Source: Acidobacteriota bacterium
GTDB lineage: Bacteria; Acidobacteriota; UBA6911; RPQK01; CBDDCF01
Direction: 5' to 3'
DNA length: 64,000 nucleotides
Assembly (NCBI GenBank): GCA_965225995.1
Contig: CBDDCF010000030.1
Coordinates: 36,101-100,100 of the forward strand
The translations under genes and the position numbers were made by a program. Positions 7,594 to 63,763 of the stretch are shown here, in pieces. The stretch's first letter is position 1, and each line of letters starts with the position of its first letter. The notes under the pieces were generated by a model. It saw nothing but the letters and a program-made list of their open reading frames with translations. It was not told the origin of the DNA and ran no database searches.

Positions 7594-7746
7594 CCTGTCA
7601 TCCTGCGCCAAGGAATTGCAGAATCAATGGGTTTGAGCGGACGGGAGGAGGAGCCCGTGTCCAGAACTCCGCCCCGGAGTCTTCTGTTGTGCAGCTAAGC
7701 GAGGTCGTGCCGGCTGGACAACAAGAATGGTTCCCGTCCGCAACTC

Positions 7747-7992
7747 TTAGACTCCGCCTTCCCCTTCATCTCGGGGAGTGTGGGAGTCGATGAACTCCAG
7801 CAGCTTTGAGCGCTGTTCGTCGGTTAGGATTTCCAGGAACTGAGCGCGAAATTGCTGGCCGAGATCGGCAAGTTCACCGCGCAAGGCATGCTGGGCGATG
7901 ACGATCTCGCCCACGATCAGAGGAGCGGGTGCTTCCATACTCAACTCGGCTTGCAAGTCTTCGCCCAACTGCTCAACGACAATTATTTTTGA
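7747..7992 (-). pseudogene. C-terminal fragment of a Spy/CpxP-like (LTXXQ) periplasmic protein, probably separated from its 5' half by the IS21 insertion
   Basis: Contains the LTDEQRSKL motif. The frame is open to 7992, right at the IS junction. Its partner fragment on the other side of the IS is 10538..10897. Confidence 0.35.
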
Positions 7993-8256
7993 TCACCGCG
8001 ACTACGATTCTTGCCCGCTGAAGTGGGTGTTTGTTTGACTTGTTTTTCTTCCTTCTTCTGAGGGCTGAAAGCCCTCTTTTCTTCTCCGGTTTTCTTGAGC
8101 GTGGGGATGGAGTGAGGGCTTGCCCGAACGGAGTTCCCACGCTTCGCGAGGCTCGGGATTGCCCTTCGAATGATCCGCTGATTGAGCTGTATACCCTCTG
8201 GGCTTGAGCCGTTTTCTGTGTGGCCAGCAGAAGGCCTTTCGAGCGGCACCTCAGAG

Positions 8257-9021
8257 TCACTTCGTCTCCTTTTGGGTTCTCTGCTTGGCGGCTTCCATCC
8301 GGTAGCTGGTCACGTTCAACTCCAGGATCACGCTATGGTGAACCAGGCGGTCGATTGCCGCGGCCGTGGTCAGGGGATCCTTGAAGATCCTCTCCCAGTC
8401 CGAGAAGACCAGGTTGCTGGTCAGCAGAATCGAGCGACGCTCGTAGCGATGGGAGAGCAACGTGAAGAGAATCTCCATCTCGTCGCGATTCTGCTGTACA
8501 TACCCGATGTCGTCGATGATCAGGGCCTCGAACCGATCCAGCTTCTTGAGTTCCCTCTCCAGAGTTAGCTCGAGCTTGGCTCTCAGTAACCGCTGCACCA
8601 GCAGCGCACAGGTCGAGAACAGCACCCGCCGGTCTCGCAGGATCAACTCCTGCCCCAAAGCACAAACAAGATGCGTTTTCCCGCTTCCTGGATTACCGAA
8701 CACAAGTAGATTTTCGGCTCGGTCCAGGAAGTCTCCCTCCACCAATCCTGACAACTGCCGGTCCACACTCTGCGGGAGTCGTGAGCGATCCAATGAAGTC
8801 AGGCTCTTGTCCCAGGGAAGTTTCGAGGTCCGTCGTAGTTTCTGGATCCGTCGTTCCCGTCGATCCGCGACTTCCAGCTCCGACAGAGCCAGCAGGTACT
8901 GCGGATAAGACCAGCTCTCTGTGGTCGCCAAAGCGGCCTGCGAGCCGTGATGCTCGCGGAAGGGCGGCAGGCGAAGTTCGACCAAACACTCTTTGAGTCT
9001 TTGCAGGTTGCCTCCGCTCAT
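8257..9021 (-). CDS. istB: IS21-family helper ATPase IstB
   Basis: Walker A GNPGSGKTHL, Walker B LIIDDIGY, IstB_IS21 family length and architecture. Confidence 0.9.
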   Translation of the reverse strand: MSGGNLQRLKECLVELRLPPFREHHGSQAALATTESWSYPQYLLALSELEVADRRERRIQKLRRTSKLPWDKSLTSLDRSRLPQSVDRQLSGLVEGDFLDRAENLLVFGNPGSGKTHLVCALGQELILRDRRVLFSTCALLVQRLLRAKLELTLERELKKLDRFEALIIDDIGYVQQNRDEMEILFTLLSHRYERRSILLTSNLVFSDWERIFKDPLTTAAAIDRLVHHSVILELNVTSYRMEAAKQRTQKETK

Positions 9022-10505
9022 GGCCTCACCTCCTGCTCGTGCGTGCCGAGCAATCGGTCATAGATCTGGATGTTGATTGGTGGAACCTGGACCTGCCACC
9101 TCGGCAGAACCGGCTCTATCAGATCCTCCTTCAGGTCCTGGAACCGGGTTCGGCGGCCGCTTTCAATCCGGTTCTTCAGAGCTTGTTCGACTTTCCTTTC
9201 CCCTTCTTGGGCCGCCAGCTCCAGGATCCCCAGATACTGTCGGTCCGCCGTCTGTGGACAATCCTCTCTCAGCTCGTCGTAGGCGACTCGGAACAGGACT
9301 CCGGGAAAGCGATCTTCCCGCCAGCGATAGCGGGCAAAGGCTCCCGGCTTTCGCACCAGCGAGTGGATCACGTGCCGGTAATCGATCCGGTGCTTTCCTT
9401 CCCCCCGCAGTCGAGGCATCTCGGCTACTCGCTGCCCGCCATAACGAACTTCCACATGATCGGCATACAGTCGCGCCTCCACCTGTTCGCGGATCAAGCG
9501 GCTGTCCACCGAGTAGGTGTTGTTGCGCACTCGGATCGTGGAACTGGTTGCGACCTTCACTCGGAATCGGATGAAGTCCTCCAGGCGACGATCCGGTAGC
9601 GGCCTCATCACTTCCAGTTCTTCTCGCAGGCGTCTTTGCCGGCCAGCATTGCGTCGCTCGATGATTCTCTGGACGAACTGCTCGTAGTCCTTGCGCTCTG
9701 AGAAATCGCGACTGCCTCTGAGCAGCAGTTCCTGTTGGATGGATCGCTTGAGCCGGTGATGCGATTGCTCGACGTCTCCGTTCTCATGAGCCTTTCCGGC
9801 TTGGGTTCGGCGGCGCTTCATTCCGTAATGATCGAGCAATGTCTGGTAGCGTTCGGTGAAGGCGCCCTTCTTGAGATTGTTGACCACAGCCGATAGACGG
9901 TCTGTTCGGTGCTCGGATGGTATCGCCCCCAGTTCCCAGATCGCGTTCTGTAGTCCCAGCGTCAAACTCTCGAAAGATTCACCGAAGCACAGGGTCGTCG
10001 TCTCCCAGTTCGAGTAGGTCACGACGAAGTGATACAGCATATGAGGAAAGGGTTGCCCGGCAATCGTCACTCCCCAGCTGTTCATGAAAGTGAAGTCGGA
10101 CTGGGCTTGATGTCCGGGCTCATGATTCTGGGGAAACATCACCTCTTTCAGCTCACCGTAGTGGGCTCTCCACTGCTTGAGCCTTCGTTGGAGCGTCCTC
10201 AGTTGTCCTTCCTCGAACTTCCCCTCGTAGATCCGATTCAGGTGGTCAAAAATAGTTGTCGCCTCCACGGTTGGAGACTGTTTCAGGATCCCTTCTATTT
10301 CGGGCCAAACGGATTCATAGGGATTCGGGCGGGTGCGCCAGGTCCGCTCTGACCGGCTTTCACTCGGCAGCTTGCCCGACTTCAAATACTTCCGTGCCGG
10401 GTTCCGCGACATGCCCGCTTTGGCCGCCGCCATCGTCAACGTCTTTTCCTTTTTCCGCAATTTCATCAGTCTCCTGATCTGCTGGTCTGTAACCATGCTT
10501 GCCAT
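9018..10505 (-). CDS. istA: IS21-family transposase IstA
   Basis: N-terminal HTH (MSRNPARKYL), DDE integrase core, ~495 aa, overlaps istB. Confidence 0.9.
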   Translation of the reverse strand: MASMVTDQQIRRLMKLRKKEKTLTMAAAKAGMSRNPARKYLKSGKLPSESRSERTWRTRPNPYESVWPEIEGILKQSPTVEATTIFDHLNRIYEGKFEEGQLRTLQRRLKQWRAHYGELKEVMFPQNHEPGHQAQSDFTFMNSWGVTIAGQPFPHMLYHFVVTYSNWETTTLCFGESFESLTLGLQNAIWELGAIPSEHRTDRLSAVVNNLKKGAFTERYQTLLDHYGMKRRRTQAGKAHENGDVEQSHHRLKRSIQQELLLRGSRDFSERKDYEQFVQRIIERRNAGRQRRLREELEVMRPLPDRRLEDFIRFRVKVATSSTIRVRNNTYSVDSRLIREQVEARLYADHVEVRYGGQRVAEMPRLRGEGKHRIDYRHVIHSLVRKPGAFARYRWREDRFPGVLFRVAYDELREDCPQTADRQYLGILELAAQEGERKVEQALKNRIESGRRTRFQDLKEDLIEPVLPRWQVQVPPINIQIYDRLLGTHEQEVRP

Positions 10506-10537
10506 GATCCAAATCAGCTCTGAAAAAGCGGGCAGTT

Positions 10538-10897
10538 CTAATTGTCGTCCGGGTCCAATTCTACGTGTCGTTGATCACCCAACATGGCTATCTCTTCCCG
10601 AATCGGCCCAAAAGTGTTCTGCATCTCCTCCAGCAGAGCCCTCACCAATTCCAACTGTTCGTCGCTAAGCTCGAGGACTCGAACCAGGATCGCACGGGAA
10701 GGAATGATGCCGCCGTAACCGCGCCGATCAGGGTTTCTGTGGCCCTGTCCCAGATTCGAGCCAGCGCCGCCGGGCCCGGTCACGGTGGGGCCTCCGGGGC
10801 CGTTTCCAGGACCCTGGCCGGGTTGAGCAACGAGACTTCCCGCAGTTAGAAGAATCGATAGTAAAAGTACGAAAAGGAAGTAATTTGTACGAGTCAT
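10538..10897 (-). pseudogene. N-terminal fragment (signal peptide + first LTXXQ-like motif) of a Spy/CpxP-like periplasmic protein, terminated at the IS21 junction
   Basis: Signal peptide MTRTNYFLFVLLLSILLTAGSLVA, Gly/Pro low-complexity linker, LSDEQLELVRALLEE motif. The stop codon lies inside the 10-bp junction repeat. Confidence 0.35.
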
Positions 10898-11163
10898 AGT
10901 GTCCTCCAGTTGTTGCTTTCAGATTCTCGTTACGAACCTAAATGCGTATTGTTCGCATGGAGTCATGGAGGCGAAAAATTAACATTCTTTACAAATCGTG
11001 TGAAGACGATTTTCTTCCCGAGATGGCGGTTGCTCGGATCCTGGATTCCTTCTCGGGACCTGACTTGGAACTTTGGAATCCCGACATGACGTGCTGGGTT
11101 CAGAAGATCGCACCGATCTTCAATCGCGGCGTCGGGGTGCGCAGGTTAGGAGCGAGCTGCCAG

Positions 11164-17702: not shown

Positions 17703-19403
17703 TTAATTGCCCGATCCGCTATTTGTCTTCTCCAGTTGTGGAGCGCTGCCCAAAGCCCTGAAATACTGTTCGACCCCTCGATAGAGCGCTTCCGCAATCG
17801 CCTGCCGGGCATCATCCTTCGCCAGGTACTTCTCGTCGCTGGGATTGCTGATAAATCCGATTTCGGTGAGAATGCTGGGCATAGTTGAGTTGATCAAAAC
17901 AATAAAGGGAGCCTGTTTGACACCCCGGTTTCTCCAGCGTGGCCTGACCTTGCGCATCTCTCCGTAAAGATTGTCTTGGATGACATGGGCCAAGTCTCTG
18001 GATTCCTCATTGTAGTCGCCGAGAGCGATTTTACGTAACAGGTTTTCCAACTCTCGGATATTCCTTTGGGCGGTGGCATTCTCTCGACTGGCAACTTCCC
18101 GTTCTTCGTCGCCAGTTGCGAAATTGAGAAAGAAGGTCTCGATCCCTGACACTTTTCGATTCGGGCTGGAATTGGCATGGAGCGAAATGAGCAGATCGGC
18201 CCCTTCCGTGTTGGCGATCGCGGTACGCTCTTCCAGGGGAATGAAAACGTCAGTATCGCGAGTCAAGACAACCGGCGTGCCCAGGCGCTGGCCAATCAGG
18301 TCCCGCAACCGCCGCGAGATATCGAGGACGAGGTCTTTCTCACGCGTTCCTCCAGGTCCGATCGTGCCCGTGTCACGTCCTCCATGCCCGGGATCGATAG
18401 CCACTTTTCCGACCTTGAGACCGAGTACCCGGGTCAAGCTCAATTTGCCATCTAGATTGGGGGTTGGAGCGCTGGCTCGCTCGGTGAGGACTTCACGTCT
18501 CGAAGTTCCCTGATCGTCGAGGGAGATTGTCGCTTCCACTGTATTGACTGTACCGGTGCCTGGCGTTTTAGCCGCTGAAGTGCGGGGACCGTGAATGTCG
18601 ATAACAATACGGAAGGGATCGTTCAAGGCGAAGACGCTGTGGGTCTCGATCTGCTCAAAGTCCAGCACTACACGCACCATGCCGGGTTGGTTCTCGCCAA
18701 CTCGAACCTTGCGGAGGCTGACACCGTTCACGTCATAAGTCTTTTCGATAGCAGATGCGAGCTGACTGTTCTCGAGATCGAAGTAGATCCGGTCCGGATA
18801 GGAAAGTACATTCTTCTTGAAAGTAGCCTCGCCGTCTAATTGGATGACCACGCGGGTGTAGTCCTCATTGGACCTGTAACGGATCTCATTCAGGGTGGCC
18901 CGCTTTCCGGATCGGGTTACGCCTGAATCGCCTGTCTCGCGGGGCAGTTTGGGTGTTGCCCTCGCCCTTTCGGCCGCCCGACGCTCGGCTTCAATTTGAA
19001 GATCCAATTCTTCCGCCCGATCCAGAGCGAGTCCCTTGTGTTTCGTCAGAGGATATTCGCGGGCCACGAACCGGTAGTAATAAATGGCGTTGTCGCGGTC
19101 GCCCTCGAGCCGGAAGCGACCGGCCATTTCATCGTATAGCGATGCCACCGCGAACAGAGCATCGTCACAGGCACCATAGGTCGGATCGTGGTCGATGACT
19201 CGGCGGTAAAGGAAGATTGCCCGCTCGTATTGGGCCCGTGGGCGTTGATCGCGGGGAACCGTGAGAAATCCTTCGTGGAAAGAGAGAGCCCGCTTGAACG
19301 ATTCCCGGGCCGCTCGTCGATCACGAGCCAGCGCCGGTTCTGCGACGAATTGACAGACCCAAAATAGAATTCCGAACGCCGCAATCCAGGTCCGGCGGTT
19401 CAT
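17703..19403 (-). CDS. N-acetylmuramoyl-L-alanine amidase (AmiC-like) with N-terminal TPR-like and AMIN-like regions
   Basis: Amidase_3 motifs IDPGHGG, SLHAN and LTEIGFISN. Start MNRRTWIAAFGILF at 19403 is preferred over the upstream ORF start. Confidence 0.8.
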   Translation of the reverse strand: MNRRTWIAAFGILFWVCQFVAEPALARDRRAARESFKRALSFHEGFLTVPRDQRPRAQYERAIFLYRRVIDHDPTYGACDDALFAVASLYDEMAGRFRLEGDRDNAIYYYRFVAREYPLTKHKGLALDRAEELDLQIEAERRAAERARATPKLPRETGDSGVTRSGKRATLNEIRYRSNEDYTRVVIQLDGEATFKKNVLSYPDRIYFDLENSQLASAIEKTYDVNGVSLRKVRVGENQPGMVRVVLDFEQIETHSVFALNDPFRIVIDIHGPRTSAAKTPGTGTVNTVEATISLDDQGTSRREVLTERASAPTPNLDGKLSLTRVLGLKVGKVAIDPGHGGRDTGTIGPGGTREKDLVLDISRRLRDLIGQRLGTPVVLTRDTDVFIPLEERTAIANTEGADLLISLHANSSPNRKVSGIETFFLNFATGDEEREVASRENATAQRNIRELENLLRKIALGDYNEESRDLAHVIQDNLYGEMRKVRPRWRNRGVKQAPFIVLINSTMPSILTEIGFISNPSDEKYLAKDDARQAIAEALYRGVEQYFRALGSAPQLEKTNSGSGN

Positions 19404-19429
19404 CCCAATATCCTTTACAATGCGGCCTA

Positions 19430-20593
19430 GTGCACTGTCCGATAAGTTCCCGATGTTAATAGTGGCCGAGCGATTCGCGAGCATTTTGGACCTTTGCCAG
19501 GATTGAGTCAGCAGTGGCGCGCCACTTGAAGGGCTTGGCCAAGCGTTGATTGTGAACCCGAATATATCTTTTGATTTCCTGTCTCAACTCTTGGACGCTG
19601 CTGAAAGAGTTTCTGTAGATCGAACGGCGCTCCAGCTGTGAGAACCAGCTTTCGACGGCATTGAGCCAGGAGGCGCTAGTGGGCGTAAAGTGGAGGTGGT
19701 ATCGGGGCCGCTGGGCCAGCCAGCTTTGAACCTGCTTGGTCTTATGAGTGCTCGAGTTGTCCAGGATTAAGTGGACATCCAGTTCGGGCTCGACCGCTTG
19801 ATCAATCTGGCGGAGAAAAGCCAGGAACTCCTTGGCTCGGTGCCTATTGGTGATGCGGCCCATGACCTCACCTGTCACCACATCGAATGCGGCATACAGA
19901 CTGGCTGTACCGTGGCGCTTGTAATCGTGTGTCCGGCGTTGGATCTGTCCCGGTCTGAGCTGGAGCATCGGCTGAGTTCTATCCAGAGCCTGGATCTCAG
20001 TTTTCTCGTCCACGGATAGAACCAGCGCATTGTCGGGCGGATCCATATACAGCCCCACCACATCGATTACCTTTTCGGCGAAGTGAGGATCGTTGCTGAT
20101 TTTAAAGTTGCGGACTCGATGCGGCTTCAGGTCGGCTGCCTTCCAGATCTGGGCGACTTGATGTTTGCTCACTCCGGAGTGTTCGGCCATCAGTCGCACA
20201 CTCCAGTAGGTCGATTCCCGTGGGATGCGTTCAACGGTGGCTTTGAGAATAGCTCGCACATTGGCATGCGATAGCTTCCGCGGACGGCCCGATCGAGGTC
20301 GATCCTCCAGTCCTGACACTCCCTGCTCAAGATAGCGCCTGCGCCACATTTGCACACTCATTAGCCGCTTGGAGAGCCTTTCCGCAACTTCAGTCGCCGT
20401 CAGCCCCTGGCCGCAAGCCAGAATTATTTGAGCCCGTTCGGCCAAGACTCGATCGGTCTTGGAAGCCCGCAACCAGGACTCCAGTATTCTTCGATCATGT
20501 TCGGGTAGCTTTAGTCGAATGTGGGGTCTTGCCATGCCCAACAATAGCAAACTACCCTGACAATTAACATCGGTAACTTTCCGGACAGTGCAC
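19430..20593 (-). mobile_element. IS630-family insertion sequence (1164 bp), flanked by TA
   Basis: Imperfect ~31-bp terminal inverted repeats: GTGCACTGTCCGATAAGTTCCCGATGTTAAT at the left end, and the reverse complement of GTGCACTGTCCGGAAAGTTACCGATGTTAAT at the right end. TA at 19428-19429 and 20594-20595. Confidence 0.8.
19456..20535 (-). CDS. IS630-family (Tc1/mariner-like) DDE transposase
   Basis: N-terminal HTH, DDE region (LILDNSSTHKT ... HFTPTSASWLNAVE). Confidence 0.85.
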   Translation of the reverse strand: MARPHIRLKLPEHDRRILESWLRASKTDRVLAERAQIILACGQGLTATEVAERLSKRLMSVQMWRRRYLEQGVSGLEDRPRSGRPRKLSHANVRAILKATVERIPRESTYWSVRLMAEHSGVSKHQVAQIWKAADLKPHRVRNFKISNDPHFAEKVIDVVGLYMDPPDNALVLSVDEKTEIQALDRTQPMLQLRPGQIQRRTHDYKRHGTASLYAAFDVVTGEVMGRITNRHRAKEFLAFLRQIDQAVEPELDVHLILDNSSTHKTKQVQSWLAQRPRYHLHFTPTSASWLNAVESWFSQLERRSIYRNSFSSVQELRQEIKRYIRVHNQRLAKPFKWRATADSILAKVQNARESLGHY

Positions 20594-20882
20594 TAGTGCA
20601 CCTGTACAATGCGGCCTAGTGCACCTGGAACCTGTCCGAGTAATGGGGTGAGGGTGCGAACATGGGTCTTGCCTTCAATCCTTTGAAACAAGAGTCTTTT
20701 CACCTACACCCAGATTCAACCAGGGTACCATTTTCCTCCGTCAACCAGCTCAGTCAACGGAAAGACAGTCGCAAGACTCGGAAATTGGGGAGGCAGGTTC
20801 TGATCCTATCCGGATACCAAAACGGCAGCTCGATTTCTTGTAGACTTGCCAGGTTACCGGCAACGGCGCCGCTGCCTAGCCG

Positions 20883-25237: not shown

Positions 25238-25550
25238 TCTTGAATGATCCGGCGCAGCCGGTGGACGGGCTAAGATGACACTTGATTTGTGGGACGAGTA
25301 TGGCACAGGCTTTCTTGGAGTTCTCTCCCTGGATGGCATTGAAGTGGTTTCGGATGTGGGAGGGGCCGTTCCCAGGCCGCGAAAGGGCCGTCAGGCCCGA
25401 CTATGAAGATCTTATTTTATTAAGATCGCCGTCTCAGAAGGCGCCTCCCACGGTTTTGAAACACCGCTTTCCTCCGCGACACCATCCCCCGTTGTGGCTT
25501 CCCGGGAGCTCAAGTTACTTTCCTGAATGATCCGGCCACCGGCCGGGGGA
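25238..25550 (+). repeat. ~265-bp structured repeat, copy 1 (core 25270-25527), flanked by ~35-bp MITE-like direct repeats
   Basis: Core starts CTAAGATGACACTTGATTTGTGGGACG. ~85% identical to 52249-52515. Flanking gaatgatccgg...gggctaa segments lie at 25241-25274 and 25516-25550. Confidence 0.6.
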
Positions 25551-38375: not shown

Positions 38376-38450
38376 CTTTTATTTTCAATAAGATCGCCGC
38401 CTGGGAAGGCACCTCCCACGGTTTTGAAACTCTGTTCTCCTGAAAGGCAG
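38376..38450 (+). repeat. Partial copy (~75 bp) of the ~265-bp structured repeat
   Basis: AGATCGCCGCCTGGGAAGGCACCTCCCACGGTTTTGAAAC matches the core of the copies at 25413-25478 and 52395-52460. Confidence 0.45.
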
Positions 38451-38522
38451 AATTGCGATTCTGGCTAGTTTTGAGACAGCTTGAAGATGCCTGCGTTACT
38501 TTGGCAGGCAGGGATGCCTGCG

Positions 38523-52248: not shown

Positions 52249-52515
52249 CTAGGATGAAACTTGATTTGTGGGACGGGTATGCCACAGGCTTTCTTGAAGT
52301 TCTCTCCCAGGATGGCATTGAAGTGGTTTCGGAGGTGTGGGAGGGGTCCTTCCCAGGCCGCGAGAGGGCCGTCAGGCCCGAATCTAAAGATTCTATTTTC
52401 AATAGAATCGCCGCCTCAGAAGGCGCCTCCCACGGTTCTGAAACACGGCTTTCCTCTGCCACATCATCCCCCCTTTGTGGCTGACAGGGAGCTCAGTTTC
52501 CAACAATTTCCACCC
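52249..52515 (+). repeat. ~265-bp structured repeat, copy 2, 13 bp downstream of the ADOP permease stop
   Basis: CTAGGATGAAACTTGATTTGTGGGACG... ~85% identical to 25270-25527. An internal hairpin carries compensatory substitutions between the copies. Confidence 0.6.
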
Positions 52516-60706: not shown

Positions 60707-61480
60707 TCATTTCTTTTCTCCTCGCTTCTTGGTCGACTTCTCCCGTTGTTGACGTTCGTAGAGGCGATAGCTCTTGCCTCGAATGAAGGTCACCTCCGAA
60801 ACGTGTAGAAAACGATCCAGCAGCGCAGAGGTGGCCGCCGTGTCTCCTCCCAGCATCGCTCCCCAGTCCTCGAGTGGTCGGTTCGAACTGATAATGGTCG
60901 AGGTCTTCTGGTAGCGGCGATGCAGGATCTCCAGCAGATCTTCAGCCGCCGAGTCGGGCACTCTCCGAAGTCCCAGATCCTCGATGATCAGCAGCGGGAT
61001 CCGGGTCATCTCTGCAATGTAGGGTCGGCGCATCCCGGTGGCAGTGGCTTCAGCGATGTCCTCGAGCAGATCGAAAGCCGACTTGTACTGTACCCGGTGA
61101 CCCGCTTCCACAGCCTTGATTGCCACCGTGATGATCAGATGTGTTTTGCCGACTCCCGCCTGACCGATGACCAACCAGCCGCGACACTGTTCGATGAATC
61201 GGCAAGTGGCCAGATCAAAGATCTGCTGCCGATTGATCGAGGTGTTGAAAGAGAACCTGAAGTCCTCCAAGAGTTTGCGTTCCGGGAACTGGGCCTGGCG
61301 GAGACATCGCTCCAGCAAACGGTCGCGCCGGCGGGTGAGTTCGTCGTCGATGAGCAGCTCAAAGAACTCCTGATGAGAGAGACGGCCCTGGATGGCTTGT
61401 TGCAGCCGTACGTCAAAGACCTGGGCCAGGCCCGAGAGCCTGAGGTGGCGAAGTTTCCGTTCCAGTTCCAATGAGATCAT
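60707..61480 (-). CDS. istB: IS21-family helper ATPase IstB
   Basis: Walker A GQAGVGKTHL, Walker B LLIIEDLG. Confidence 0.9.
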   Translation of the reverse strand: MISLELERKLRHLRLSGLAQVFDVRLQQAIQGRLSHQEFFELLIDDELTRRRDRLLERCLRQAQFPERKLLEDFRFSFNTSINRQQIFDLATCRFIEQCRGWLVIGQAGVGKTHLIITVAIKAVEAGHRVQYKSAFDLLEDIAEATATGMRRPYIAEMTRIPLLIIEDLGLRRVPDSAAEDLLEILHRRYQKTSTIISSNRPLEDWGAMLGGDTAATSALLDRFLHVSEVTFIRGKSYRLYERQQREKSTKKRGEKK

Positions 61481-62973
61481 TCCGGGTCTCCTGAGCGGGG
61501 AGTGAGTTGGTACTCAGACAGCGGCCGAATCAACTCGTGGTCGGAGGTGAATAGAGAGCGTTGCGGCACGTCTAGTCGCTTGCATAAAGCCACCAGGGTC
61601 CGATAGCGGAAGGCATCGTGAGAGAGAGCCTTGGCACAGGCTTCATTGACGACCGTGGCCGGGTAGCGTCGGGTCAAAGAGATCATGCCTCTCAGGAGCC
61701 GGTAGGCCAACACGTCGCGCACCTCCAGGGCTCGCACTGCCCAGCGGTGAGCATCAGAGCCAATCCTGCGGGCTTGCCCGAGCAGCTGACTCTCAGTTCG
61801 ATAATGAGCGTAGCGTTTGCGTTCCGGAAGATGTGTGGGTTCGGTCTGGAACTGGCCGGGTTTCCGCTTGGGATGCAGGACGACTTGCTGCTCTCGGAAA
61901 AAGACTCGGACGATCCGGTCATCCCAGTGCACAGCCACTTCACAGCCAAGCAGATGATTGGGTACCGAGTAGAAGGCTCGATCGACTTCGATGTGGCCAT
62001 CCACGGAGACCGTGCGACGGCCGGTACGGAAGAAACTGAAGCGGGAGTCGGGTAGAGGTCGAAGACCCTTCTGTTCCTCCAGGAATCGGGGCCAGACCTG
62101 CTGTTTGGTGGTGCCGTGGATGCGCTGTCGGGCGACCCGCTCGTTCCAGTTCCGTAGATGCTCATTCTGCTCGGCCAGACTCTCGAACCGTCTGCCCTTC
62201 AGGGCACTGGACTTTGTATATCCGATCGTCCTTTCGACTTTTCCATTCTCATTTGGAGAGCCAGGATGGATGGGAATGATGGCAAAACTATAGTGACGGC
62301 CCAGCGCACTGAAAACGGCGTTGATCTCGGGATCGACAAAGCAGGCTCGCGTGACTCCGGCCTTCAGGTTATCCAAGCGAACCACGTCTACCGAGCCACC
62401 AAACCAGTGGAAGGCATTCTCGACACAACGGACGAAGGTCTCCAGATCCTGCCGCCAGACGACCTCCTCATACGAGTGGCGGGAATAACACAGCACTGCC
62501 TTGAACAGGTGGGGGCGACGGTACCGGCCCGATTCGGTTTGTGTCAGAGCTGCTTTGCCAAAGTCCACCTGCATGTCCCGACCGGGTGGAGTTTCCACCC
62601 GAGCGAAGACTCGTGGACTCTCGGCTTTGAGCTTTCTGCAAAACCGTTTGACGGAGTTATACGCTCCATCGAAGCCATGCTCCAAAACCAGGTCTTGCCA
62701 GATCCGCTTGGCATGCAACCCCAGCTCAAGCTTCTTCTGGATTTCCTCCCGAAAAGGCTCACACGAGCTGCGCCGACCCGGGGGCCGCTTTGGCCGCTTT
62801 TGCTCACCCGAGCCGGGGGCCACTTTGGCCGGTTTTGAATCTCGGGCCGGATCATGTCGGGCTACAGTCTCTCGACGAACTCCTGTTTCTCGCTCGATCC
62901 GCCGATACGACCAGCCCAGCTTCAATAGCGCCACAACCGTTTGTTTCTTCTCCATTTTCAGTACATTGACCAT
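61477..62973 (-). CDS. istA: IS21-family transposase IstA
   Basis: HTH + DDE integrase core, 498 aa, 4-bp overlap with istB. Confidence 0.9.
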   Translation of the reverse strand: MVNVLKMEKKQTVVALLKLGWSYRRIERETGVRRETVARHDPARDSKPAKVAPGSGEQKRPKRPPGRRSSCEPFREEIQKKLELGLHAKRIWQDLVLEHGFDGAYNSVKRFCRKLKAESPRVFARVETPPGRDMQVDFGKAALTQTESGRYRRPHLFKAVLCYSRHSYEEVVWRQDLETFVRCVENAFHWFGGSVDVVRLDNLKAGVTRACFVDPEINAVFSALGRHYSFAIIPIHPGSPNENGKVERTIGYTKSSALKGRRFESLAEQNEHLRNWNERVARQRIHGTTKQQVWPRFLEEQKGLRPLPDSRFSFFRTGRRTVSVDGHIEVDRAFYSVPNHLLGCEVAVHWDDRIVRVFFREQQVVLHPKRKPGQFQTEPTHLPERKRYAHYRTESQLLGQARRIGSDAHRWAVRALEVRDVLAYRLLRGMISLTRRYPATVVNEACAKALSHDAFRYRTLVALCKRLDVPQRSLFTSDHELIRPLSEYQLTPRSGDPE

Positions 62974-63068
62974 CGGCGCATCCTACGAGGGATGCAGCTC
63001 TCAATGGCTCCTGAAAATGGCCGGTTTTGAAGTGGCCCTCACTGGCCGCTTTTGGGTGGCCCCTGACA

Positions 63069-63595
63069 TCCACGGATAGAACCAGCGCATTGTCGGGCGG
63101 ATCCATATACAGCCCCACCACATCGATTACCTTTTCGGCGAAGTGAGGATCGTTGCTGATTTTAAAGTTACGGACTCGATGCGGCTTCAGGTCGGCTGCC
63201 TTCCAGATCTGGGCGACTTGATGTTTGCTCACTCCGGAGTGTTCGGCCATCAGTCGCACACTCCAGTAGGTCGATTCCCGTGGGATGCGTTCAACGGTGG
63301 CTTTGAGAATAGCTCGCACATTGGCATGCGATAGCTTCCGCGGAGGGCCCGATCGAGGTCGATCCTCCAGTCCTGACACTCCCTGCTCAAGATAGCGCCT
63401 GCGCCACATTTGCACACTCAGTAGCCGCTTGGAGAGCCTTTCCGAAACTTCAGTCGCCGTCAGCCCCTGGCCGCAAGCCAGAATTATTTGAGCCCGTTCG
63501 GCCAAGACTCGATCGGTCTTGGAAGCCCGCAACCAGGACTCCAGTATTCTTCGATCTTGTTCGGGTAGCTTTAGTCGAATGTGGGGTCTTGCCAT
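63069..63595 (-). pseudogene. IS630 transposase, N-terminal ~175 codons only
   Basis: MARPHIRLKLPEQDRRILESWL...PPDNALVLSVD, then the sequence diverges at the IS21 junction. Confidence 0.7.
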
Positions 63596-63653
63596 GCCCA
63601 ACAATAGCAAACTACCCTGACATTTAACATCGGGAACTTTCCGGACAGTGCAC
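63069..63653 (-). mobile_element. Truncated second copy of the IS630-family element (right half only)
   Basis: 63073-63653 is ~98% identical to 20010-20593, including the terminal repeat CGGACAGTGCAC at 63641-63653. The IS21 insertion ends at 63068. Confidence 0.75.
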
Positions 63654-63763
63654 TGGGCACCGACAACGAGGCCAAGTGGCAATCAGTTTCCAGTTTCGGA
63701 GACTTGACTCGGCTGTAAGCAAGTTGCAAGGGAGAGGTGCCTAGGACCTGTTATCATTCGGCT

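Follow-up and report, generated by a model that had tools for sequence, protein, structure and literature searches.

Does the IS21-family element found in this 64,000-nucleotide stretch of an Acidobacteriota contig (CBDDCF010000030.1, positions 36,101 to 100,100; hereafter the window) interrupt a gene, and where exactly does the element begin and end? The istA and istB genes of the element are flanked by two minus-strand open reading frames (ORFs), which the original prediction, made from the letters of the sequence, took to be the two halves of a single small periplasmic protein of the Spy/CpxP/ZraP type. The present analysis supports an insertion in codon 107 of a 178-codon gene of the Spy/CpxP/ZraP/CnrX type, with duplication of 6 bp of the target, and a probability of roughly 95 % is attached to this reading. 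The evidence comes from the ends of homologous copies of the element, from the reading frame that is restored by excision, and from an uninterrupted orthologue. The coordinates of the features are collected in Table 1.

The interrupted gene

The upstream ORF, from 10897 to 10538 on the minus strand, encodes 119 aa and has, by inspection, a hydrophobic, signal-peptide-like N-terminus, a Gly/Pro-rich stretch, and LSDEQLELVRALLEE. The downstream frame is open on the same strand from 7992 to the stop codon at 7747-7749 and contains FLEILTDEQRSKLLEF. Both ORFs and their motifs are present as originally described; however, neither is made up of gene sequence only. The 119-aa product consists of 107 native residues, followed by 12 element-encoded residues (DQRHVELDPDDN) and a stop codon that comes from the left end of the element, and the first residues of the 7992 frame (SKIIVVEQ) are likewise element-encoded. 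Positions 7964-7969 duplicate the L106 codon and the two leading bases of the Gly107 codon, which is completed by base 7963. Excision of the element together with one copy of the duplication yields an uninterrupted ORF of 178 aa, reading ...REEIAML-G-EDLQAELSMEAP... at the junction; the frame is restored because the 2608-bp element and the 6-bp duplication amount to 2614 bp, which is 1 mod 3. The original prediction had required a duplication of 2 mod 3, for example 5 or 8 bp. This arithmetic was right for the ends assumed at the time, but the length actually removed does not correspond to the numbers predicted.

An intact counterpart of the gene was found in a search of 5.8 billion proteins, in which the best match, P0001, is 178 aa long and 81 % identical over 100 % of the query, and two further relatives are 54-69 % identical. 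All three are continuous over the junction, the latter two reading AML-x-E(D/E)L. The gene for P0001 is located on a 7.6-Mb metagenomic contig (locus L081), where its neighbours are a topoisomerase IV/gyrase A-like gene and a Cofac_haem_bdg+PDZ gene, as they are in the window. At the DNA level, window positions 10999-10575 align with L081 5895-6323 and window positions 7969-7636 with L081 6315-6633; the two flanks of the element are therefore adjacent and overlapping at the orthologous locus, where the empty site has one GTTGGG. The uninterrupted orthologue that the original prediction proposed should be sought has thus been found as a single 178-aa gene, and the insertion point is mapped on it. 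Identity to P0001 is 84 % for the 5′ half and 78 % for the 3′ half, and neither half contains a stop codon or a frameshift.

The same continuity is seen more widely. When a profile of the three relatives was compared with 1.84 billion representative proteins, 1725 were matched at E<=1e-3, and the representatives listed are mostly of 150-200 aa, with one continuous match over both halves. The flanking ORFs are halves of one gene, in keeping with the original prediction.

The orthologous locus also has an extra 2.7 kb between the topoisomerase-like and Spy-like genes (L081 3146-5895), and an IS256-type (Transposase_mut) gene is part of it; in the window the corresponding interval is only approximately 170 bp long.

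Table 1. Position and basis of the features described at the interrupted locus, in window coordinates.
Feature	Position	Strand	Description and basis
Interrupted gene, 5′ part	10578..10897	-	Codons 1-106 and two bases of Gly107; signal-peptide-like N-terminus, Gly/Pro linker, first L(S/T)xxQ motif
Interrupted gene, 3′ part	7747..7969	-	To the stop at 7747-7749, with the second LTxxQ motif; ORF, excision and homologue alignment
Complete IS21-family insertion sequence	7970..10577	-	2608 bp, ends TGATCAACGAC... / ...GTCGTTGAGCA; copy alignment
Target-site duplication, left (istA-proximal) copy	10578..10583	CCCAAC on +, GTTGGG on -	Same as 7964-7969; abuts the independently set end
Target-site duplication, right-end copy	7964..7969	CCCAAC on +	GTTGGG single at the L081 empty site
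istA	9018..10505	-	495 aa, predicted IS21-family DDE transposase; NCBIfam NF033546 transpos_IS21, 201.6 bits (cut-off 160)
istB	8257..9021	-	254 aa, predicted AAA+ helper ATPase; NCBIfam NF038214 IS21_help_AAA, 244.3 bits (cut-off 200)
Left terminal region	10528..10577	-	Direct sub-terminal repeats L1 (CAACGACACGTAGAATTGGACCCG) and L2 (GGACGACAATTAGAACTGCCCGC); alignment of both ends
Right terminal region	7970..8019	+	Repeats R1 (TGCTCAACGACAATTATTTTTGATCACCG) and R2 (CGCGACTACGATTCTTGCCCGC); end alignments
Hairpin, 44 nt	8099..8142	-	GCGTGGGAA / CTCCGTTCGGGC-AA-GCCCTCACTCC / ATCCCCACGC; covariance model R1, 60.1 bits, E ~1e-11, match 8089-8153

Extent of the element and its target-site duplication

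The ends of the element were set independently of the gene, by comparison with homologous copies. A scan of one genome per species identified 244 relatives of IstA, including ten copies, with IstA 83 % identical, on one Acidobacteriota chromosome (OZ252114.1, loci L002-L011), and dozens of copies with approximately 73 % identity in another genome. Towards istA the ten copies remain identical to each other as far as TGATCAACGAC..., and towards istB as far as ...GTCGTTGAACA, and past both of these points the flanks are unrelated; the ends were placed where the copies cease to resemble each other. Aligned to both ends of these copies, the element in the window starts on the minus strand with TGATCAACGACACG at 10577 and finishes with ...AATTGTCGTTGAGCA at 7970, with junctions between 7969 and 7970 and between 10577 and 10578. 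The terminal 11-mers, TGATCAACGAC and TGCTCAACGAC, are alike at 10 of 11 positions and are the sole matches to TGMTCAACGAC in the window.

Around the element thus delimited, CCCAAC is duplicated perfectly, over 6 bp. In those relatives whose two flanks still match each other, there are likewise 6-bp duplications, and one of 8 bp. The duplication had been expected to be of 5 or 8 bp, which is not what is seen at this site.

Several of the ten copies on OZ252114.1 are without matching duplications, and their flanks instead pair between copies: ATTGGT is common to the upstream flank of L002 and the downstream flank of L009, and GAGATA to the upstream flank of L010 and the downstream flank of L003. 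This suggests rearrangement by recombination between copies.

Genes of the element and family membership

Both istA and istB are intact and are located between the two flanking ORFs, with istB directly downstream of istA and its start overlapping the istA stop by 4 nt. In addition to the NCBIfam matches (Table 1), IstA is matched by Pfam rve and Mu-transpos_C_2 and IstB by Pfam IstB_IS21 (PF01695, 196.6 bits). From these matches the insert is classed as an IS21-family element, as originally stated.

The IS21 family includes IS21 of plasmid R68.45, IS408, and IS5376, and its members usually duplicate 4-8 bp of target and transpose, with the help of IstB, by way of tandem or junction intermediates. 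The element resembles this family in having a DDE transposase gene, istA, then an AAA+ helper gene, istB, as two consecutive genes, in its length of approximately 2.6 kb, in its imperfect inverted ends of the form 5′-TG ... CA-3′ with several repeated sub-terminal motifs at each end, and in its target duplication, which at 6 bp is inside the normal range. It is unlike the annotated plasmid-borne members of the family, in that a protein-level plasmid search gave a best annotated istA product only approximately 45 % identical to IstA; at the nucleotide level, megablast of the element against a plasmid collection gave no match. Close relatives (73-83 %) were found solely in uncultured Acidobacteriota genomes. 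By its sequence, the element appears to be a new member of a well-known family.

Protein family of the interrupted gene

The restored protein is assigned, from sequence profiles and a predicted structure, to the Spy/CpxP/ZraP/CnrX superfamily (LTXXQ / PF13801), and is predicted to be secreted and all-helical. Against PF13801 the N-terminal fragment alone scores 16.4 bits, and the restored protein covers profile positions 16-124 of 125 with 28.7 bits (E 1.6e-6), just short of the cut-off of 29.2. Against PF07813 (LTXXQ), the comparison suggested with the original prediction, it scores 18.7 bits, which is below the cut-off of 24.3. When the restored protein is aligned with 99 relatives, 87 of the 100 sequences match this family at E<=0.001, and 94 match PF13801. 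The two LTXXQ motifs that had been noted correspond to L77-S-D-E-Q81 and L153-T-D-E-Q157. Both are present, although the first has S for T, and Q81 and Q157 are invariant in the 100 sequences, with L77 and L153 conserved in at least 90 %.

A profile of the 100 sequences matches the solved chains of STV (5ihf, 9.8e-11), Spy (3oeo, 9.4e-10), CpxP (3itf, 2.2e-6), and ZraP (3lay, 4.4e-6), and the alignments extend over both motifs, supporting the proposal of a Spy/CpxP/ZraP-like protein. With a shallow profile of four sequences, only noise was obtained against PDB sequences. In the AlphaFold2 model, residues 1-69 are disordered and helices are predicted at 67-75, 79-114, 121-152, and 155-168. For residues 71-170 the pLDDT, averaged in blocks of 10 residues, is between 67 and 94. 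The best Foldseek matches to this model in the PDB are CnrX, CpxP, ZraP, Spy, and NccX, with target-normalised TM scores of 0.6-0.79.

The predicted protein is like other members of the superfamily in its length of approximately 180 aa, its putative N-terminal export signal, its two L(T/S)xxQ motifs, and its long, predicted antiparallel helices. It differs from them in its identity to each of the solved members, which is below 20 % in the fold alignments, in the long Gly/Pro-rich linker after the signal peptide, and in the LSDEQ form of its first motif. Nor was a regulator of the Cpx, Zra, or Cnr type seen adjoining the restored gene. Members of the superfamily are periplasmic and have chaperone or stress-signalling activity; for this protein, the sequence does not distinguish between chaperoning, metal binding, and inhibition of signalling.

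Alternative explanations

A number of points weigh against an insertion into a gene of this type. The lone restored protein is slightly below the gathering scores of both Pfam families, its signal peptide was judged solely by eye, from MTRTNYFLFVLLLSILLTAGSLVAQP, and the Foldseek E-values are weak, at 0.13 and above, although such values are usual for small helical hairpins. There is a single copy of the element in the window, which leaves its activity in this genome to be inferred, and the sequence alone leaves room for a repeat placed there by the assembly.

This last point is the basis of an alternative, considered improbable, in which the repeat has been wrongly placed, or variably placed as an insertion present in part of the population, and the gene is intact in most cells. 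Insertion sequences are numerous in the window, which also contains a second IS21-family element and two copies of the IS630 family, and in related genomes the copy number of related elements ranges from 10 to over 60; repeats of this kind are difficult to assemble. However, a misplaced repeat would not give a perfect 6-bp duplication of a sequence that is single at the orthologous empty site, and a perfect duplication at a site that is otherwise colinear argues strongly against misplacement by the assembly.

It is very unlikely that the flanking ORFs are separate small genes with the element in the spacer between them, even though each has an open frame of its own and there is a possible TTG start at 7968 for the 3′ ORF. 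The syntenic orthologue is a single gene of 178 aa, the matches to Pfam, to the PDB profiles, and to the representative library each cross the junction in one stretch, and the element itself supplies both the last codons of the upstream ORF and the part by which the downstream frame is extended at its 5′ side.

The original prediction had placed the termini at a 10-bp inverted repeat, ACGACAATTA. This repeat is real and non-random, with exactly two occurrences in the window, at 7976-7985 (+) and 10539-10548 (-), against approximately 0.03 expected by chance, but its two copies cover nucleotides 7-16 counted from the right end of the element and 30-39 counted from the left. Each end of the element has two copies of a sub-terminal repeat of approximately 22 nt (L1/L2 and R1/R2), and the two-repeat layout on the left is also present in the 73 % relatives. 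The 10-mer at 7976-7985 is the core of repeat R1 and that at 10539-10548 the core of repeat L2, which explains the inverted pair even though it is not terminal. Termini at the 10-mers, with a 5- or 8-bp duplication outside them, are hardly credible, since homologous copies extend 29 bp past the left 10-mer and 6 bp past the right one before their flanks diverge, and there is no direct repeat around 7976/10548, whereas there is a perfect 6-bp repeat around 7970/10577. Termini located elsewhere had been named in advance as a finding that would refute the original prediction; as it turns out, they alter only the boundaries, which had been flagged as uncertain from the start, and leave the conclusion standing.

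A further similarity was seen between the right end (7977-7997) and the interior of istA (10241-10261), which are alike at 19 of 21 nt (90 %) in inverted orientation. This was considered as an internal site for the transposase and dropped. Since relatives show no DNA-level conservation of the stretch in istA, the match is probably due to chance or is lineage-specific.

Course and consequences of the insertion

Under the preferred reading, insertion into codon 107, the 2608-bp element, with istA then istB on the minus strand and multi-repeat TG...CA ends, would have transposed into the gene and duplicated a 6-bp target, GTTGGG on the gene strand. The insertion would fall inside the long second helix (79-114) and leave two remnants, one being the 119-aa product and the other a promoterless 3′ part without a signal peptide. 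Because this long helix is cut, neither fragment would be able to form the helical hairpin, and the Spy-like gene is presumed to be inactivated. No polar effect would be expected, because the next gene downstream is convergent. The event is likely to be recent, since the duplication is perfect, neither half of the gene has decayed, and istA and istB are intact. Judged from its sequence, the element may still be mobile.

A conserved hairpin in the 3′ non-coding part of the element

From the istB stop (8257) to the right end (7970), the spacer is mostly divergent from that of relatives, except for CGCGAAGCGTGGGAA-CTCCGTTCGGGC-AA-GCCCTCACTCC-ATCCCCACGC, which belongs to a hairpin (Table 1). The core, CTCCGTTCGGGC-N2-3-GCCCTCACTCC, is kept in IS21 relatives with IstA 73-83 % identical, and the non-coding DNA around it diverges. 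In the 73 % relatives the core is kept and the stem is changed in a compensatory manner, with GCGAGGGGG paired with CCCCCTCGC. The region is the sole strong match to the covariance model in the window.

A scan of metagenome contigs for the exact core gave 41 loci; since the loci were fetched in this way, the invariance of the core is partly by construction. The 10-15 nt on either side of the core are unrelated between lineages and complementary within each lineage. Among 18 distinct sequences, 84 % of the cells in the stem pair, compared with 39-49 % when the partners are slid by 1-3 columns, and in 14 of the 15 outer pairs both partners are changed. Covariation is scored at 0.65, versus 0.16 in shuffles. 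Divergent copies were found at L073:3498-3562 (34 bits) and in L124, the latter being the only one of four matches to a looser core pattern in viral contigs to have a convincing stem. The single-sequence fold is unremarkable (z = -1.6), and the wobble count, with 4 G-U cells in the istAB sense versus 24 A-C/C-A cells, many of which are outside the real stem of that lineage, points clearly to neither strand as the working one.

The hairpin is not confined to IS21 elements. It is located approximately 75-125 nt inside the right end of IS21 elements (approximately 125 nt) and of two IS3-family lineages, pointing outward. In these two IS3 lineages the core ends approximately 90 nt before the terminal ...GGTCA, and the hairpin overlaps the 3′ tail of the transposase ORF, where ORFs are taken from stop to stop. 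Its orientation is antisense, on the 5′ side of the transposase, in a third lineage of IS3 and in an IS256-like one. It is also found on the strand opposite to an IS110-type gene, approximately 500 nt past the 3′ end of that gene (L118), and after two DUF1670 genes (L106).

No credible Rfam 15 family was obtained for the hairpin, either over 7600-11000 or, under relaxed filters, over 8040-8200, and a literature search by topic and by its core sequence returned nothing relevant. In having a conserved hairpin in the spacer from istB to the right end, for which no published description was found, the element is unlike known IS21 elements. From the comparative alignments, the hairpin is recorded as a real, conserved structured element. 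That it is an undescribed structured element common to unrelated insertion-sequence families is a tentative suggestion. It could act at the RNA level, by controlling the expression of the transposase or by insulating the element against transcription from outside, or it could be a single-stranded DNA site.

Just inside the right end, the plus strand has two terminator-like hairpins followed by T-runs, one at 8012-8029 and one at 8060-8076, which face inward and are antisense to istAB. These could stop transcription that enters the element from the flank.

Other features of the window

An IS630-family element at approximately 19425-20596 encodes a 364-aa transposase (NF033545, 280.6 bits), and has 37-nt inverted repeats at 19427-19463 and 20560-20596; a 593-aa ORF (17703-19484) has its 3′ end directly beside this element or overlapping it. 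A second IS630-family copy is present in the region of approximately 61477-63745, where 63069-63368 is a 99 % repeat of 20009-20308. This copy is apparently cut near 63069 by the second IS21-family element, which is unrelated to the first, in a nested insertion. The IstA of this second element (61477-62973, 498 aa) shares just 25 % identity with the product of istA at 9018-10505. Repeats of 60-100 nt, with 69-90 % identity, form a family at 25270-25493, 38378-38461, and 52249-52475; these are unrelated to the element at 7970-10577.

Implications

The disruption of a gene by an insertion sequence is an ordinary event. In this case, it would represent a recently active IS21-family element in a genome rich in insertion sequences, at the cost of one small protein of the envelope-stress or metal-resistance type. 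For annotation, the two short ORFs should become one pseudogene, the true ends of the element and its 6-bp duplication are defined, and the tail of the 119-aa ORF is to be regarded as element-encoded. The hairpin is the only item here with wider potential. If functional, it would be a module common to several insertion-sequence families, and could indicate a common means by which they control their expression or are shielded from host transcription.

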